Positions 5,238-58,647 of a stretch of 64,000 nt of DNA are shown here, piece after piece (position 1 is the first letter of the stretch; the number at the start of each line of letters is the position of its first letter). Location of the stretch: the sequence record PQ724392.1, one strand, 5' to 3'. A program made the translations under genes and the position numbers. The notes under the pieces were generated by a model. That model ran no database searches and had not been told where the DNA came from. It worked only from the letters and a program-made list of their open reading frames with translations. The stretch comes from a phage.

Positions 5238-5453
5238 TCATAATCCAAATAATTTTTCATAGAGTTTAGCAAAAGGCCAGGTCACACACATTATAACAGC
5301 GACTACCCAGAATATAGGCCAGCAAAATGTTGTGAACGCCGCATCATACTCGTCCCCACTTTCGTAGGGACTATCAAACTTGTGGAGCAACAGGGTAGTA
5401 ATAAAACCTATCACAAGATAACCAAAAATAATGCTGATAATCAAAATAGTCAT
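5238..5453 (-). CDS. small membrane protein (2 TM)
   Basis: ATG at 5453 with AAGGA RBS; hydrophobic. Confidence 0.5.
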   Translation of the reverse strand: MTILIISIIFGYLVIGFITTLLLHKFDSPYESGDEYDAAFTTFCWPIFWVVAVIMCVTWPFAKLYEKLFGL

Positions 5454-5454
5454 A

Positions 5455-6300
5455 TTAATCCTTAAGCAATTCAATAACGTTCATCAGTTTCTGACGTTCG
5501 GCTTTCGCCGCGTTATTCAGTCCCGACAGACGGAAAATTTCATCATCTTGCTGCTGGATGGTGATGTTAAGCTCTTCAATCTGTTTAGTGAAAAGCTCAA
5601 TTTGCTCTGAATATTTTTCATTGCTTCGCACTGGAACAGGTTCCATTTTAGGAGCTTGTTCTGAAGGGCTGACTTCAAATTGGTCTTTAATTTGGCATAA
5701 TTTAATACGCTGGACGCCTCCAGTTTTAACATCATAAAAGGTAAGAATACCGTGACATTCCAGTACAGACAATGCCAAACGAAGATGGAATTTCCAATTA
5801 TCATATTGACATCCACTAAAAGAAGAAATACTGTATTCACCTTCTTTTTGACCTTTAATAACATTAAATAGTTTATAATCTAAAGAATTATTGGTTTTAA
5901 AGGTCATTTGTTTATCTTGACCGCTTGCTAAACGAGCGCCTAATGCCAATAAACGGCGCTGGTTTTTCCAAAGGTCTTTAACCACTTCATCAAACGTCAT
6001 GGTGTTAATCGCACGACCATAAAGGTCATAACCTTTATTATAATTTTTAAGTAAAATTTTGGCATTAGCACGAGACAACATACCTGAACGATGAAGAGAT
6101 TTCATGACTCGGTCTTCTAATGTAAGAAGACCAGTGGTCTTTTCAAAGATTTTAGTGAATTCAGCGGAATTAGTACAAACATTGAACTTATTCCACATCA
6201 TATATAGAACATTTAAAACCACATCTTTGGTGCTTGGTATACGACCAAATTTAACAACTTTTTTAACTTCAGAACGAATTTCATTAATTGCTTGCGACAT
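5455..6300 (-). CDS. hypothetical protein with C-terminal coiled coil
   Basis: 281-aa ORF. Confidence 0.6.
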   Translation of the reverse strand: MSQAINEIRSEVKKVVKFGRIPSTKDVVLNVLYMMWNKFNVCTNSAEFTKIFEKTTGLLTLEDRVMKSLHRSGMLSRANAKILLKNYNKGYDLYGRAINTMTFDEVVKDLWKNQRRLLALGARLASGQDKQMTFKTNNSLDYKLFNVIKGQKEGEYSISSFSGCQYDNWKFHLRLALSVLECHGILTFYDVKTGGVQRIKLCQIKDQFEVSPSEQAPKMEPVPVRSNEKYSEQIELFTKQIEELNITIQQQDDEIFRLSGLNNAAKAERQKLMNVIELLKD

Positions 6301-7589: not shown

Positions 7590-8336
7590 ATGATTTTATC
7601 CGGAAGAACTGTTGATGAACTCAATGAAAAAGTCCAGGCTGCCTTGGCTAATAATTGGTATTTGTTTGGTTCTACTATGGTGTTGCCGAATACTCCTACG
7701 GATAGCAAAGAGCGTTTTTTCCAAACTATGTCCAGCTCGGAAACTCAGATACCGGGCCCGCCTGGTCCAAAAGGAGACCCGGGTGTACCAGGACCAAAAG
7801 GAGACCCAGGCGGGGATGGAAAGTCTTCTTATCAGATATGGCTTGACTTGGGAAATACAGGAACTGTTGATGATTTTTTAACTGATACAGCAGGAAAGAG
7901 GGAAAAATCCGAGGTGTTTTGGAGTGGTATAAACGTTCTATTAACTAATGGTGTGACTTCAAACATAATTAGTATTTTAAAGGGGATTCCGCCGACTGCA
8001 GGGACTCTATCTCCGTTTTTTAGAACCACTGATGATAAGTTGTGGCCATATAACCAAGACAGAAGCCTAATGTTTAAACTCAACCTTATTGGTAATTTTA
8101 CAGGAGCCTCGCAAGCTCGAAGTATAACATTAAATTTCGTTGGAACCAACGGAAACACTTATATACAGAATCGTCCGGAAAATGCTACAGATATTTTGTC
8201 TTTTACAACGTTCTTTAGCATTGATAAAGATGGGGCAATGGCAACCAATGGTACAGCTATAACTGTTATGCCAAATGGCGGCAACTTTACAATAACCTCT
8301 GCATTGTTAGTAGCCGAACAAACAGTGACTTCATAA
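7590..8336 (+). CDS. collagen-like repeat protein with beta-rich C-terminal domain
   Basis: 248 aa; AAAGGAG RBS; GPPGPKGDPGVPGPKGDPGGDG Gly-X-Y run; only plus-strand gene in the early block. Confidence 0.7.
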   Translation: MILSGRTVDELNEKVQAALANNWYLFGSTMVLPNTPTDSKERFFQTMSSSETQIPGPPGPKGDPGVPGPKGDPGGDGKSSYQIWLDLGNTGTVDDFLTDTAGKREKSEVFWSGINVLLTNGVTSNIISILKGIPPTAGTLSPFFRTTDDKLWPYNQDRSLMFKLNLIGNFTGASQARSITLNFVGTNGNTYIQNRPENATDILSFTTFFSIDKDGAMATNGTAITVMPNGGNFTITSALLVAEQTVTS

Positions 8337-8360
8337 ACAAAAAAAGGGCCAGATGGCCCT
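8337..8360. terminator. bidirectional hairpin terminator between convergent genes
   Basis: GGGCC..GGCCC stem flanked by A-run and T-rich tail. Confidence 0.5.
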
Positions 8361-8548
8361 TAGATTGCACTCCAAAAATTATGGAATCTTATAGTATTGA
8401 TAGCCCAGTTAACAAACCTGCGAGTTTGCTTGGGAGTTGGTTTGCATGTGTACTTGATATTGACCCGACGACCAGTTTCCCGACAGACTGCTTCGAGATA
8501 CCAGCGTCGACCTTTATTAGGTCTTCCGTATGATAAGAAGACCTTCAT
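8360..8548 (-). CDS. small basic hypothetical protein
   Basis: internal ATG at 8548 chosen to avoid overlap. Confidence 0.4.
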   Translation of the reverse strand: MKVFLSYGRPNKGRRWYLEAVCRETGRRVNIKYTCKPTPKQTRRFVNWAINTIRFHNFWSAI

Positions 8549-8555
8549 TTCTTCA

Positions 8556-9566
8556 TTAACGATAATAGGAATTGTGGTTGTCAAGATATACCTCTTCAAC
8601 AAACTTGTCCCAGAACTTCATGTCCACCTTCGCAGGCATACCGTTCTTAGCAGCCTGGATGGCCAGGACTTCAACTTCATCAACAGTATTTTCCAACAGG
8701 CCTTGAACTACTTTGAAAGGCATATCACCAGCTTTTATTGCTTTAATAATAGAAGCGTTTTTGAGCGGATAAACCAGGTCACCAGTTTGATAGATTTCCT
8801 TCAGCTGATATCCAGCTCGATAAGCATGGCTCAGAGCTTTCCAGTCAATACCTTCATTCGCTTCAGCCTTACGAGCACGTTCACCATATTCGGCATCAAG
8901 TTTATTCAGAGATTGCTTGAGCTCGATTAATGACAAAGTAGTTTGGTATTTACGACCGAGAATAGTATAGAACGTTTGAGGACCTGTTTTCTCATGGTTA
9001 TGAAATATCCATTCACAGAACTCGTTTTCAGGGAGTCTGTGTTTGATATCTTCTACCTTAGTACGTCGTTGCTTAGTAGAACCATCTTCTTGATAATCGA
9101 CCCATTGTTCAGGAATCTGGTTAACAATTTCCAATACACCACGCAGTGCAGCCAATCGAGAACCTTTAACACCATATTTGGAAGCTTGCTTACGGACGTA
9201 CCCCAAATAGGCTTTCATGTTAGTTGTATAGAACCGTGAACGGTTGTCCTGAATAAACTTCCATACATCTGGTAAATCGGATTTGACTACCAGGTCAGCC
9301 GGGGTGTGAATCATATCCAGAGCAACGGTTTCGCCATCGGCCGCCAGTTTAAAGAAATATTTCAGACTATAAAGTTCATGGTCAACATCATCTTTTGTAT
9401 TTTTGGTAGCCGTGTTATTCGTGTTCAGGTTTGTATGATTCATCGCGGTTCCGAGCAGGATATCTCGCGGATGTGGAACAAAGATTTCTTTAAAATCGAC
9501 ATCAGATTCTGGGGTACTTGTTCCATAAAGATGGCTACCGAAGTAGCCTTTCATAACTGTTCTCAT
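8556..9566 (-). CDS. nucleotidyltransferase-fold protein (Pol-beta/MNT-like motif)
   Basis: 336 aa; N-terminal YFGSHLYGTSTPESDVDF (GS, 10 residues, DxD) then helical region. Confidence 0.6.
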   Translation of the reverse strand: MRTVMKGYFGSHLYGTSTPESDVDFKEIFVPHPRDILLGTAMNHTNLNTNNTATKNTKDDVDHELYSLKYFFKLAADGETVALDMIHTPADLVVKSDLPDVWKFIQDNRSRFYTTNMKAYLGYVRKQASKYGVKGSRLAALRGVLEIVNQIPEQWVDYQEDGSTKQRRTKVEDIKHRLPENEFCEWIFHNHEKTGPQTFYTILGRKYQTTLSLIELKQSLNKLDAEYGERARKAEANEGIDWKALSHAYRAGYQLKEIYQTGDLVYPLKNASIIKAIKAGDMPFKVVQGLLENTVDEVEVLAIQAAKNGMPAKVDMKFWDKFVEEVYLDNHNSYYR

Positions 9567-10015
9567 TTCTTCGCCTCAAAATGGATTACTGGGCACATCT
9601 TAGATTTACGAGCTTTGATATATTGAATGAAAACATTTTCTTTAATTTCCTTTCCTTCACGTTTAGCTTTAATGCGTTCCCATTCTTTTTCTTCTTTACG
9701 TAAATCGTACCAGGCCCATAAATTCATTAGACCATACATTAGACCAAATGCTACCGTCAGAATAAGAGCCAGTGTAGCTAGTCCTAAAATAAACCCTAAA
9801 CCTAAACCGACCGGGGTGCTTAATACAAAGAAATGCTCTAATACACCTGCGCCCGCGACAGTTAATCCAAAAACCATACTACCGATAAAAACGGCACAAA
9901 CAAAACAAGCCCAAACCATTTTCCAGAAATAAGCACACAAAGAGTGTGGACGAGAATGACGGTCATAAAAACGGTCGTGGAAACGAGCGTGCCATGAGTT
10001 TGTATTGATAATCAT
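9563..10015 (-). CDS. membrane protein (2-3 TM) with charged C-terminal tail
   Basis: 150 aa; ATGA-coupled to the downstream nucleotidyltransferase gene. Confidence 0.55.
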   Translation of the reverse strand: MIINTNSWHARFHDRFYDRHSRPHSLCAYFWKMVWACFVCAVFIGSMVFGLTVAGAGVLEHFFVLSTPVGLGLGFILGLATLALILTVAFGLMYGLMNLWAWYDLRKEEKEWERIKAKREGKEIKENVFIQYIKARKSKMCPVIHFEAKK

Positions 10016-10026
10016 AATAATTTTCC

Positions 10027-10587
10027 TTAAGAGTTCATAGTTGGGATAACAGAGTTCAGATAAGAGACTAAAACTTTTAGCTCGTCCTTAGTAAATACCA
10101 CTTCACTTTCGCCGTCATGTCTTTGGACAATAGATAACAGGTCACGGCCGTTATGTTGATGCACAGTTAATTCAGTATTATAATCTAGTTCTTCTTCATC
10201 GCCTTCAAACGTTTCACTAGAGCGAATCAGTGCATCTTGTCCCGGAACTTTCCATTCAACTTCCGGTTTACATTCTTCCTGGAAGAGTTTGAAAATACAA
10301 TCAAAGAATTTATCAGAATCGCTAATGCTCAGGCATTCTATACCATTTTCCAGATTAAACCCATTTTCATTTTTATAGATATAAGCGTATAGCTCATCGT
10401 TAATATCGACAGGAGCACTGTTACGTCCATTGAGATAGTCAGCTCTATCCAAAACCATTAAATCATAAAGTGGTTTAATATCTTGGATAGTCAGTACGAT
10501 TTTATCGTCTTCTTGACAAAGCTCAATTGCGTTATTAACCACTTCAGCAGTCAGTTCGCCAAACAATTCAGTTGTTTCAATAATCAT
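10027..10587 (-). CDS. hypothetical acidic protein
   Basis: 186-aa ORF. Confidence 0.55.
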   Translation of the reverse strand: MIIETTELFGELTAEVVNNAIELCQEDDKIVLTIQDIKPLYDLMVLDRADYLNGRNSAPVDINDELYAYIYKNENGFNLENGIECLSISDSDKFFDCIFKLFQEECKPEVEWKVPGQDALIRSSETFEGDEEELDYNTELTVHQHNGRDLLSIVQRHDGESEVVFTKDELKVLVSYLNSVIPTMNS

Positions 10588-11858: not shown

Positions 11859-11886
11859 AAAAGGTCCACCCGAAGGCAGACCTTTT
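11859..11886 (-). terminator. rho-independent terminator
   Basis: GC stem with TTCG-like loop followed by U-run on minus strand. Confidence 0.5.
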
Positions 11887-54331: not shown

Positions 54332-56638
<2,307 letters not shown>

Positions 56639-56667
56639 AAGTAAAGCAAACTATTAGAGGACTCAAA

Positions 56668-58647
56668 ATGGCTTTATTATCCCCGGGCATTGAGCTCAAA
56701 GAAACAACGGTACAAAGCACTGTTGTTCGTAACGCGACGGGTCGTGCGGCGCTGGTTGGTAAATTCCAGTGGGGCCCAGCTTTCCAGGTAACTCAAATTA
56801 CAAACGAAGTTGAACTTGTTGATTTGTTTGGTGGTCCGAATAATGAAACAGCAGATTACTTTATGAGTGGGATGAACTTCCTGCAATATGGTAACGACCT
56901 CCGTACTGTACGTGTTGTTAACCGTGACGAAGCTAAAAACGCATCCCCTATTGCTGGCAATATTGAAACTACCATCGTAACTGCTGGTACAAACTATGCT
57001 GTCGGTGATGTTATTCAGGTTAAACACAACCAGACTGTTGTTGAACCGGCTGGCCGTGTGACCAAGGTCGATGTTGATGGTAAAATTCAGGCAATCTTTA
57101 TTCCTACCGATAAGATTATTGCATTTGCCAAAACTATTAACCAGTATCCTAATTTAGGTAGTGCATGGACTGCGGAAGTTACAACCACTTCTTCTGGCGT
57201 ATCTGGTACCATCACCGTTGGGAAAATTGTTACCGATTCTGGAATTCTGTTGACTGAAGCAGAAAATAGTGAAGAAGCAATTACTTCTCTGGAATTCCAG
57301 GCATCATTAGCAAAATATGCAATGCCAGGTGTTGTTGCTCTTTATCCAGGTGAAATCGGTTCGACTCTGGAAGTTGAAATCGTATCTAAAGCTGAATTTG
57401 AAAAAGGCGCAGCTGCAAATCTGAATATTTTCCCGGGCGGCGGAACGCGTGCTTCTGTGGCTCGTGCCGTGTTTAACTATGGCCCTCAGTCTGAAAACCA
57501 ATATGCAATTATCGTTCGCCGCGATGGTGCAATCGTCGAAAACGTTGTTTTGTCTACCAAGCAGGGCGAAAAAGATGTTTACGGTAATAACATTTATCTG
57601 GATGACTACTTTGCAAAAGGTACTTCCAACTACATCTATGCAACATCTCGCAACTGGCCTGTAGGCTTCAGTGGTATCATCAATCTGTCTGGTGGTATTT
57701 CTGCAAACGATAAGATTACCGCTGGTGATTTGATGCAAGGTTGGGACCTGTTTGCTGACCGTGAAGCACTGCATATTAACCTGCTTATCGCTGGTGCAGT
57801 AGCTGGTGAAGGTGATGCAACCGCTTCCACTGTTCAGAAACACGTGGTTTCTATTGCTGACGAACGTCAGGATTGTCTGGCATTTATTTCCCCACCGAAA
57901 GGTCTGTTGGTTAACGTTCCTCTGACCCGTGCAGTGGATAACCTGATTGACTGGCGTACAGGTGCTGGCGCATTTGATACTGATAACATGAATATCAGCA
58001 CGACTTATGCAGCGATTGATGGCAACTATAAATATCAGTATGATAAATATAATGACGTTAACCGTTGGGTTCCTCTGGCAGCTGATATGGCTGGTCTGTG
58101 TGCTCGTACTGATGATGTTTCTCAGCCTTGGATGTCTCCGGCTGGTTATAACCGCGGTCAGATTCTGAACGTTCTGAAATTGGCTGTTGAACCACGTCAG
58201 ACCCAACGTGACCGCATGTATCAAGAAGCTATCAACCCGGTTGTTGGTTTCGCAGGTGGTGATGGTTTTGTTCTGTATGGTGATAAGACTGCAACTAAAG
58301 TTCCATCTCCGATGGACCATATTAACGTTCGTCGTCTTACGAATATGCTGAAGAAAAATATCGGTGATGCATCCAAATATAAACTGTTTGAGCTTAACGA
58401 TAACTTCACTCGTGCATCATTCCGTATGGAAACTTCTCAATACTTGGATGGTATTCGTGCACTTGGTGGCATTTATGAAGGTCGTGTAGTTTGTGATACT
58501 ACTAACAACACCCCGTCGGTCATAGACCGAAATGAGTTTGTTGCTAGCATTTATTTTAAACCTGCGCGCAGCATCAACTACATCACTCTTAATTTCGTAG
58601 CCACTAGCACTGGTGCTGATTTTGATGAGCTGATTGGGCCACAATAA
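56668..58647 (+). CDS. 18: Tail sheath protein gp18
   Basis: 659 aa, same length as T4 gp18. Confidence 0.95.
   Translation: MALLSPGIELKETTVQSTVVRNATGRAALVGKFQWGPAFQVTQITNEVELVDLFGGPNNETADYFMSGMNFLQYGNDLRTVRVVNRDEAKNASPIAGNIETTIVTAGTNYAVGDVIQVKHNQTVVEPAGRVTKVDVDGKIQAIFIPTDKIIAFAKTINQYPNLGSAWTAEVTTTSSGVSGTITVGKIVTDSGILLTEAENSEEAITSLEFQASLAKYAMPGVVALYPGEIGSTLEVEIVSKAEFEKGAAANLNIFPGGGTRASVARAVFNYGPQSENQYAIIVRRDGAIVENVVLSTKQGEKDVYGNNIYLDDYFAKGTSNYIYATSRNWPVGFSGIINLSGGISANDKITAGDLMQGWDLFADREALHINLLIAGAVAGEGDATASTVQKHVVSIADERQDCLAFISPPKGLLVNVPLTRAVDNLIDWRTGAGAFDTDNMNISTTYAAIDGNYKYQYDKYNDVNRWVPLAADMAGLCARTDDVSQPWMSPAGYNRGQILNVLKLAVEPRQTQRDRMYQEAINPVVGFAGGDGFVLYGDKTATKVPSPMDHINVRRLTNMLKKNIGDASKYKLFELNDNFTRASFRMETSQYLDGIRALGGIYEGRVVCDTTNNTPSVIDRNEFVASIYFKPARSINYITLNFVATSTGADFDELIGPQ

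Follow-up and report, generated by a model that had tools for sequence, protein, structure and literature searches.

An orthologue of T4 nrdC.11 in phage record PQ724392.1 encodes an RlaP-family nucleotidyltransferase with a proposed accessory role in tRNA repair

A gene for a nucleotidyltransferase (NTase) and its immediate neighbours are described here from a 64,000-nucleotide (nt) stretch of phage record PQ724392.1, which was analysed as a whole and is referred to below as the window; loci are numbered on its positions. On the minus strand, the list of open reading frames (ORFs) and a reading of the sequence give three consecutive genes, at 9563-10015, 8556-9566 and 8360-8548. The first of these (9563-10015) encodes a hydrophobic membrane protein of 150 amino acids (aa) that belongs to PHROG 944. 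The second (8556-9566) encodes the NTase, a protein of 336 aa that starts with MRTVMKGYFGSHLYGTSTPESDVDF and is of the NrdC.11 type within the RlaP family, and the third (8360-8548) encodes a strongly basic protein of 62 aa that starts with MKVFLSYGRPNKGRRW and matches DUF7279 and PHROG 8921. The last ORF was listed by the program as 8360-8602 (80 aa, with a TTG start), while an internal ATG at 8548 gives the 62-aa form. The plus strand reads TCAT at 9563-9566; thus, the stop codon of the membrane-protein gene overlaps the start codon of the NTase gene in an ATGA on the minus strand. A GAGG Shine-Dalgarno sequence of the NTase gene is found 7 nt before its ATG (9574-9577, minus strand). The three ORFs, the basic character of the shortest and the ATGA coupling had been reported in a preliminary description of this DNA, made from the letters alone, and were all found as located there.

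The identity of the NTase gene is essentially certain from its sequence: it is an orthologue of T4 nrdC.11 and a member of the RlaP family. In a direct comparison, the 336-aa protein and T4 NrdC.11 (NP_049709, T4p095; RefSeq product name "nucleotidyltransferase") are 81% identical, with 89% positives over 336/336 aa and no gaps. The window protein matches PF10127, RlaP ("RNA repair pathway DNA polymerase beta family"), with E=2.2e-11 and 44.4 bits against a cut-off of 23, and the T4 protein has the same Pfam match with 46.6 bits. In addition, PHROG 388, "nucleotidyltransferase", is matched over the full length of the 336-aa protein with E=1.9e-129. The GS-x10-DxD signature and the fold assigned from it in the preliminary description are thus real rather than a chance resemblance. 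By contrast, its premise that T4 lacks a core gene with this fold was wrong, as the 81% identity to NrdC.11 makes clear. In effect, the gene, its family, its fold and its proposed role are already catalogued in the literature. As early as 2006, the nrdC.11 orthologues of six T4-like genomes were reported to match the nucleotidyltransferase group COG3541 (PMC1524935). The suggestion of an undescribed system does not hold either, given that RlaP/PF10127 is a known family with two characterised bacterial members and that T4 NrdC.11 has been named within it.

The genomic position leads to the same identification. By megablast, the region belongs with T4-like phages of the genus Gaprivervirus. The genes of SP18 are labelled nrdC.11 (nucleotidyltransferase), membrane protein and mobD.1, and in both SP18 and vB_EcoM_RZ the gene order is nrdC.9 ... 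nrdC.11 - membrane protein - mobD.1 ... tk. In the window, the gene directly upstream of the membrane-protein gene (10027-10587, minus strand) is MobD.1/y05I-like: it matches Pfam T4_y05I_N (E=1.8e-36) and T4_y05I_C (E=1e-19) and its product is 34% identical to that of T4 mobD.1. The window shares with T4 the position of nrdC.11 in the nrdC-mobD-tk early region, on the same strand as mobD.1 and downstream of it. The two differ in what surrounds the gene. T4 has the order mobD.1-mobD-nrdC.11, with an HNH gene, mobD, before nrdC.11 and nrdC.10 after it, whereas the window has the 150-aa membrane protein before the NTase and the DUF7279 ORF and a terminator after it.

The NTase is widespread. A tblastn search found it in 1514 phage records, with hosts that include Escherichia, Klebsiella, Aeromonas, Acinetobacter and Vibrio, and, among clusters formed at 50% identity, 3096 matched at E<=1e-3 and 798 at E<=1e-30. 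Many deposited phage genomes name this NTase "thioredoxin", and single records name it "HNH homing endonuclease" or "ArsR family regulator". The "thioredoxin" label appears to be a propagated annotation error, carried over from the locus name nrdC.11, since NrdC is a thioredoxin.

The residues expected of an active NTase are conserved. In an alignment of 77 homologues with 34-82% identity, the catalytic signature G10-S11 ... D22-x-D24 (residues 10-24; 9495-9539, minus strand) is present in 77/77 sequences. Residues G10, S11, G15, S21, D22, D24, Y131, R230, K243, H247, R250, P267 and G280 are invariant, and D60, D62 and D84 are kept in at least 73 of the 77. Among the latter, D62 (9381-9383, minus strand) is the probable third metal-binding carboxylate, for which a search had been proposed in the preliminary description. 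It is D in 73/77 homologues and E in 3/77, is placed by the structural model on strand 61-67, and lines up, as read from the hhalign output, with the conserved D of an "lDinG" motif in short canonical RlaPs. Further along the protein, the motif DWKALSHAYR (residues 241-250; 8817-8846, minus strand), which also served as a search pattern for related loci, contains the invariant K243, H247 and R250 as well as D241, kept in 76/77 sequences. It may have a role in NTP or RNA binding.

The AlphaFold model of the protein is of high confidence (pLDDT 94.3, pTM 0.81). Its N-terminal part is an alpha/beta NTase core, in which GS immediately precedes helix 11-14, D22 and D24 lie where strand 23-30 begins, and strand 61-67 carries D62. 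Beyond the core there are helices, a beta-rich insertion (residues 154-208; 8943-9107, minus strand) made of five model strands, and a C-terminal region of helices, the last of which is long (316-335). The helical sequence of about 230 aa that had been expected after the signature is therefore recognisable in the C-terminal region but is interrupted by the beta-rich insertion. This insertion is typical of a long NrdC.11-like subfamily, and its segment varies from 39 to 75 aa among the 77 homologues. A Pol-beta/minimal nucleotidyltransferase fold is supported by the Pfam and PHROG matches together with the structure searches: Foldseek against the PDB gave weak matches in agreement with an NTase fold, and a fold search of BFVD returned many phage "nucleotidyltransferases". 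No solved structure was matched by sequence, and no RlaP-labelled chain was among the PDB matches in either the sequence or the fold searches.

Searches against other NTase families narrow the assignment. Several of these families had been put forward in the preliminary description, and the outcome was mixed. RlaP scored above its cut-off, while Pfam NTP_transf_2 remained below it (14.1 bits, cut-off 21), no CD-NTase or SMODS family of Pfam was matched down to E=1, and the Pfam scan contained neither AbiEii nor the PolyA_pol head and tRNA-binding domains of the CCA-enzyme family. The sole NCBIfam match was MntA, at a sub-threshold 13.7 bits (cut-off 60), and no PADLOC defence model matched the NTase at E<=0.1. 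With a hidden Markov model (HMM) built from alignment A2, the window and T4 48-58 kb each yielded a single RlaP gene. T4 nrdC.10 was considered as an RlaP paralogue and rejected, as it has weak AAA/STAND ATPase matches only.

Within RlaP, the window protein shares with the rest of the family a Pol-beta core with GS...DxD and a probable third Asp, and it appears to share the order of an NTase domain and then a helical one. Compared profile to profile with the short canonical RlaPs, it gave 93% probability and E=3e-7 over residues 4-177 only. This restriction places the NTase in a distinct long subfamily. The window protein is ~70-80 residues longer than the short RlaPs identified here (~255-273 aa) and differs from them in having the beta-rich insertion and a C-terminal half that the profile does not align; its gene, moreover, is not adjacent to a ligase gene. 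In a published similarity network, T4 NrdC.11 is in cluster 5 and the assayed enzymes are in cluster 1a (bioRxiv 10.64898/2025.12.29.696909), which is consistent with a distinct long subfamily.

What is known of RlaP biochemistry comes from two Pseudomonas enzymes, PfRlaP and PaRlaP, described by Carruthers, Fatma and Huang in a family that was named for the adjacency of its genes to RNA-ligase genes (bioRxiv 10.64898/2025.12.29.696909). Both enzymes add 1-2 nucleoside monophosphates (NMPs) to the 3'-OH of RNA, and none to DNA or protein, with a preference for Mn2+ and for the 5' half of cleaved tRNA. When both ends are offered, the 3' end at the anticodon break is preferred over the acceptor end. 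If RlaP acts before ligation, a tRNA missing one nucleotide of its anticodon loop partly regains aminoacylation. In the crystal structure of PfRlaP, an NTase domain is joined to a C-terminal helical domain, and the final helix of the latter packs against the NTase domain (bioRxiv 10.64898/2025.12.29.696909). For phages, it has been predicted that RlaPs replace, before ligation, the nucleotides that RloC-type RNases have removed (Iyer et al. 2021, PMC7824862).

The gene neighbourhoods of cellular relatives point in the same direction. When prokaryotic species were scanned, each represented by one genome, 80 loci with full-length relatives of the NTase (33-51% identity) were obtained, and their neighbours were clustered and then scanned against Pfam. 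The most frequent companion, present in 24/80 loci and often directly downstream, is another RlaP, of the short canonical kind (PF10127, E as low as 1e-81). The flanks also contain RtcB (10/80), Pnkp (7/80), Hen1 (6/80), RtcA (2/80) and Ro60 (2/80). At least one of RtcB, RtcA, Pnkp, Hen1, Ro60 or a second short RlaP is found in 33 of the 80 loci; of the 48 loci whose flanks reach 3 kb or more on each side, 23 have one or more of these genes. For instance, one operon reads RtcB - RtcA - NrdC.11-like - short RlaP (locus L112) and another reads Hen1 - Pnkp - NrdC.11-like - short RlaP (L133). These neighbourhoods tie the long subfamily itself, and not only the canonical RlaPs, to RNA repair. Tandems of a long NrdC.11-like gene and a short RlaP (L112:6001-7743 and L133:6001-7802, for example) often lie inside RtcB-RtcA or Hen1-Pnkp operons, and their arrangement suggests a division of labour between two enzymes.

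On the basis of the family biochemistry and these gene neighbourhoods, and by analogy, the NTase is probably an accessory phage tRNA-repair enzyme that carries out non-templated addition of 1-2 nt to an RNA 3'-OH and thereby counters anticodon nucleases that excise a nucleotide. In such a mechanism, two metal ions would be held by D22, D24 and D62, and the 3'-OH of a broken RNA would receive one or two NMPs from NTPs, in analogy to the two Pseudomonas RlaPs. The enzyme would act preferentially on the 5' half of a tRNA whose anticodon loop has been cut by a host nuclease of the RloC type, which removes a nucleotide. Phage Pnkp and RNA ligase 1 could then reseal a full-length loop, while the membrane protein and the DUF7279 ORF would be co-transcribed neighbours in a variable early-gene array rather than obligate partners. 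The substrate, the role against RloC and any activity at all of the phage protein are what we infer in this scheme. An accessory role is consistent with the dispensability of the T4 segment from nrdC.11 to mobD.3 in genome-reduction experiments (PMC9825161). Among the roles suggested in the preliminary description, modification of tRNA or RNA 3' ends is the best supported, whereas nucleotide signalling and toxin or exclusion functions found no match to CD-NTase, SMODS, MenT/AbiEii or defence models.

Nevertheless, several observations weigh against a role in tRNA repair. The RlaP match is partial, as it spans NTase residues 8-133 and only profile positions 25-141 of 249. The C-terminal half, with the beta insertion, is unaligned to canonical RlaPs by hhalign, so substrate specificity may differ. 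The activity data come from the two Pseudomonas enzymes and not from phage ones, the rescue of aminoacylation by these enzymes was partial and their addition non-templated, and the same work names T4 NrdC.11 as an RlaP member "of unknown function" (bioRxiv 10.64898/2025.12.29.696909). The short RlaP that often accompanies the cellular long form is absent, by HMM search, from the window and from T4 48-58 kb. Finally, tblastn found no match in the 64-kb window for RtcB, RtcA, Pnkp, Hen1, Ro60, T4-type Pnkp or Rnl1. Thus, any link to RNA repair in the phage is genome-wide and not local. In the sister phage vB_EcoM_RZ, Pnkp (HAD_PNKP plus AAA_33) and RNA ligase 1 are encoded elsewhere, more than 80 kb away. 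In a set of 78 viral loci from IMG/VR, an RtcB or Rnl1-like gene lies within ~4.5 kb of the NTase in 3, all of them distant ones.

An enzyme of this kind might instead act on another RNA 3' end, for example by mending trimmed tRNA acceptor (CCA) ends, by assisting the maturation of phage-encoded tRNAs or by tailing host or phage RNAs so that their stability changes. The characterised RlaPs do label full-length tRNA- and rRNA-sized species as well as single-stranded RNAs, with little specificity for the NTP (bioRxiv 10.64898/2025.12.29.696909), and the divergent C-terminal half of the NrdC.11 subfamily leaves the choice of substrate open. Still, such a target is rather unlikely, as the cellular relatives adjoin RtcB, RtcA, Pnkp and Hen1 and not CCA enzymes or RNA-decay factors, and as the characterised enzymes act on the anticodon break in preference to the acceptor end. 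A more specific version of the tRNA-repair proposal is also conceivable, if doubtful. The long NrdC.11-like enzymes could have acquired a distinct specificity through the beta insertion and the divergent C-terminal half, such as recognition of the anticodon stem-loop and re-insertion of a particular wobble nucleotide. Long and short enzymes would then work in pairs in bacterial RtcB or Pnkp/Hen1 operons, and T4-like phages would have kept the long enzyme alone as an antidote to RloC.

The coupling to the membrane-protein gene raises a different possibility, namely, that the two genes form a module in which a nucleotide or oligonucleotide signal made by the NTase gates a membrane effector, as in the HalB-HalA pair of Hailong, for superinfection exclusion or interference with signalling. 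The membrane protein belongs to PHROG 944 with E=1.2e-55 and matches no Pfam family above cut-off; by sequence, it gave only noise against solved structures. Its family comprises 86 matched clusters, and all the named ones are from T4-like phages. Alignment A4 shows W8, H9, P23, C27, Y29, K139 and C141 to be invariant. They fall in two conserved motifs, SWH...P.SLC.YFW at the N-terminus and YIKARK.K.CP.I.F at the C-terminus, which enclose a variable hydrophobic middle. The structural model, of moderate confidence (pLDDT 70.7), has two long hydrophobic helices (26-62 and 67-118) and short terminal strands (2-4 and 145-147), and a hydropathy scan gives three hydrophobic segments in close homologues. 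The earlier estimate had been 2-3 transmembrane helices. The model and the motifs hint that the termini may form a small cytoplasmic His/Cys module, possibly a metal-binding one.

The linkage of the two genes is loose. Among the 78 viral loci, a homologue of the membrane protein is adjacent to or overlaps the NTase gene in 12, lies upstream with another gene between in 29, is downstream in 1 and was not found within 4 kb in 36. The gene pair is thus sometimes linked, so that the refuting condition named in the preliminary description, a pair never linked in homologous phages, does not apply, yet the pairing is not obligate. What intervenes in the 29 loci is either a homing endonuclease or a soluble ORF, which belongs to various families or to none. 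In T4, no homologue of the membrane protein was found between 48 and 58 kb even at E<=10, and the slot between mobD.1 and nrdC.11 is occupied by a free-standing HNH homing endonuclease, mobD. No homologue was present in any of the 80 cellular loci (0/80). A single-sequence scan for the membrane protein without the NTase gave just the same close relatives. The ATGA coupling itself does not single out this pair, as in many related phages the start of the NTase gene overlaps the stop codon of varied upstream genes (gap -4 or -1), and is thus a generic property of compact early-gene arrays. Genes directly upstream of the NTase were considered as conserved partners and rejected, since they vary widely (an HNH endonuclease, a ProQ-C-like protein, a large unrelated ORF, or a gene without a family). 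The membrane gene is a lineage-specific variable neighbour of the NTase and not an obligate partner.

A signalling module is consequently very improbable. In addition to the retention of the NTase by T4 without a membrane homologue in the 10 kb searched, the interposed genes or missing homologues in viral loci and the absence of homologues from cellular ones, the resemblance to HalB (PDB 9dbh/9dbj) is limited to a 143-residue NTase core with 12% identity in one comparison (range 12-15%), with no match at the level of sequence or in a defence database. PADLOC gave no matches, the membrane protein is without a match by sequence to a solved structure, and, in contrast to Hailong, the membrane neighbour is not conserved with the NTase.

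Around the membrane gene, the slot between mobD.1 and nrdC.11 is a hot spot that holds the membrane gene in the window (9563-10015) and mobD in T4 (56429-57208). In VR26-like phages, a 267-aa ORF stands between the membrane gene and the NTase (L006:3198-4001); in this region, the VR26 record annotates a mobD homing endonuclease. In some T4-like phages, those of the Acinetobacter type among them, two membrane-protein paralogues are encoded close to the NTase (L056:2712-3589; L066:2931-3410 and 5312-5731), and in L066 one of these is downstream of the NTase.

It is also highly unlikely that the NTase modifies a small molecule, such as an antibiotic or a metabolite, in the manner of kanamycin or lincosamide nucleotidyltransferases (ANT/Lnu-like). 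Kanamycin nucleotidyltransferase/ANT(4') and the structural-genomics protein 3c18 do share with it an N-terminal NTase domain and a C-terminal helical bundle, but identity to them is 8-11% (~10%) and TM-scores are ~0.3. Moreover, no aminoglycoside or lincosamide NTase of Pfam or NCBIfam was matched, the assayed Pseudomonas RlaPs took RNA only and not DNA or protein, and the cellular neighbourhoods are those of RNA repair. Least credible is that the phage carries an abortive-infection or exclusion module in which the NTase is a MenT/AbiEii- or MNT-HEPN-type toxin or antitoxin, given an MntA score far under its cut-off, the lack of PADLOC matches, a conserved DWKAxSHAxR that differs from the HEPN Rx4-6H motif, a gene that is single-copy across ~1500 lytic T4-like phage records and no cognate partner conserved among the 78 viral loci.

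Downstream of the NTase, the 62-aa ORF scores 36.3 bits against Pfam DUF7279 (cut-off 24.5) and matches PHROG 8921 with E=1.1e-39, and it is without annotation in the RefSeq record of the sister phage. A DUF7279 ORF directly follows the NTase in 14/78 viral loci and is a sporadic neighbour of it. In T4, the gene directly downstream of nrdC.11 is nrdC.10 (L001 6344-7321, minus strand), with weak matches to AAA/STAND NTPases. It is absent from the window, where the DUF7279 ORF, a terminator and a tail-needle-knob ORF stand in its place.

The terminator is a GC-rich hairpin, AAGGGCCATCTGGCCCTT, followed by a T-run at 8344-8361, between an ORF on the plus strand (7590-8336) and the 62-aa ORF on the minus strand (8360-8548). 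It has 7 pairs, of which 5 are G-C, and was called on the minus strand by the terminator scan; it is the probable terminator of the minus-strand unit. As its stem is palindromic and A/T runs flank both sides, it may be used in both directions and also end the convergent plus-strand ORF. The product of that ORF (7590-8336, 248 aa) has collagen-like G-X-Y repeats and, at its C-terminus, a tail-needle-knob domain of the Sf6 type (Phage_tail_NK of Pfam, E=3.2e-32; PHROG 1030). The ORF lies within the minus-strand early-gene region, abuts the hairpin and occupies the place of T4 nrdC.10. At the other end, a terminator-like hairpin at 11859-11886 may mark the upstream limit of the minus-strand unit. 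A scan for sigma-70-like promoters gave results not above chance, and from 8.3 to 14.4 kb the minus strand has no MotA-box-like site of a middle promoter. Over its full length, the window has 34 sites that fit the MotA-box-like pattern TGCTT-N13-17-TANNNT, compared with 17.1 +/- 3.8 in shuffled sequences, none of which reached 34 (0/100). Most of the sites are on the minus strand, as would fit T4-type middle promoters throughout the early region.

As an orthologue of the catalogued T4 nrdC.11, the NTase gene is of low value as a discovery. Its interest lies in the favoured role in tRNA repair. If NrdC.11 restores the nucleotides excised by RloC before repair by Pnkp and Rnl1, it would supply the third enzyme that the classic tRNA-repair counter-defence of T4 has lacked, and, were the long enzyme to prove the antidote to RloC, the long-open question of how T4 answers this nuclease would be closed. 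The hypothesis thus poses a concrete and directly testable question, and the tandems of long and short RlaPs in bacterial operons may help in the design of the experiments.

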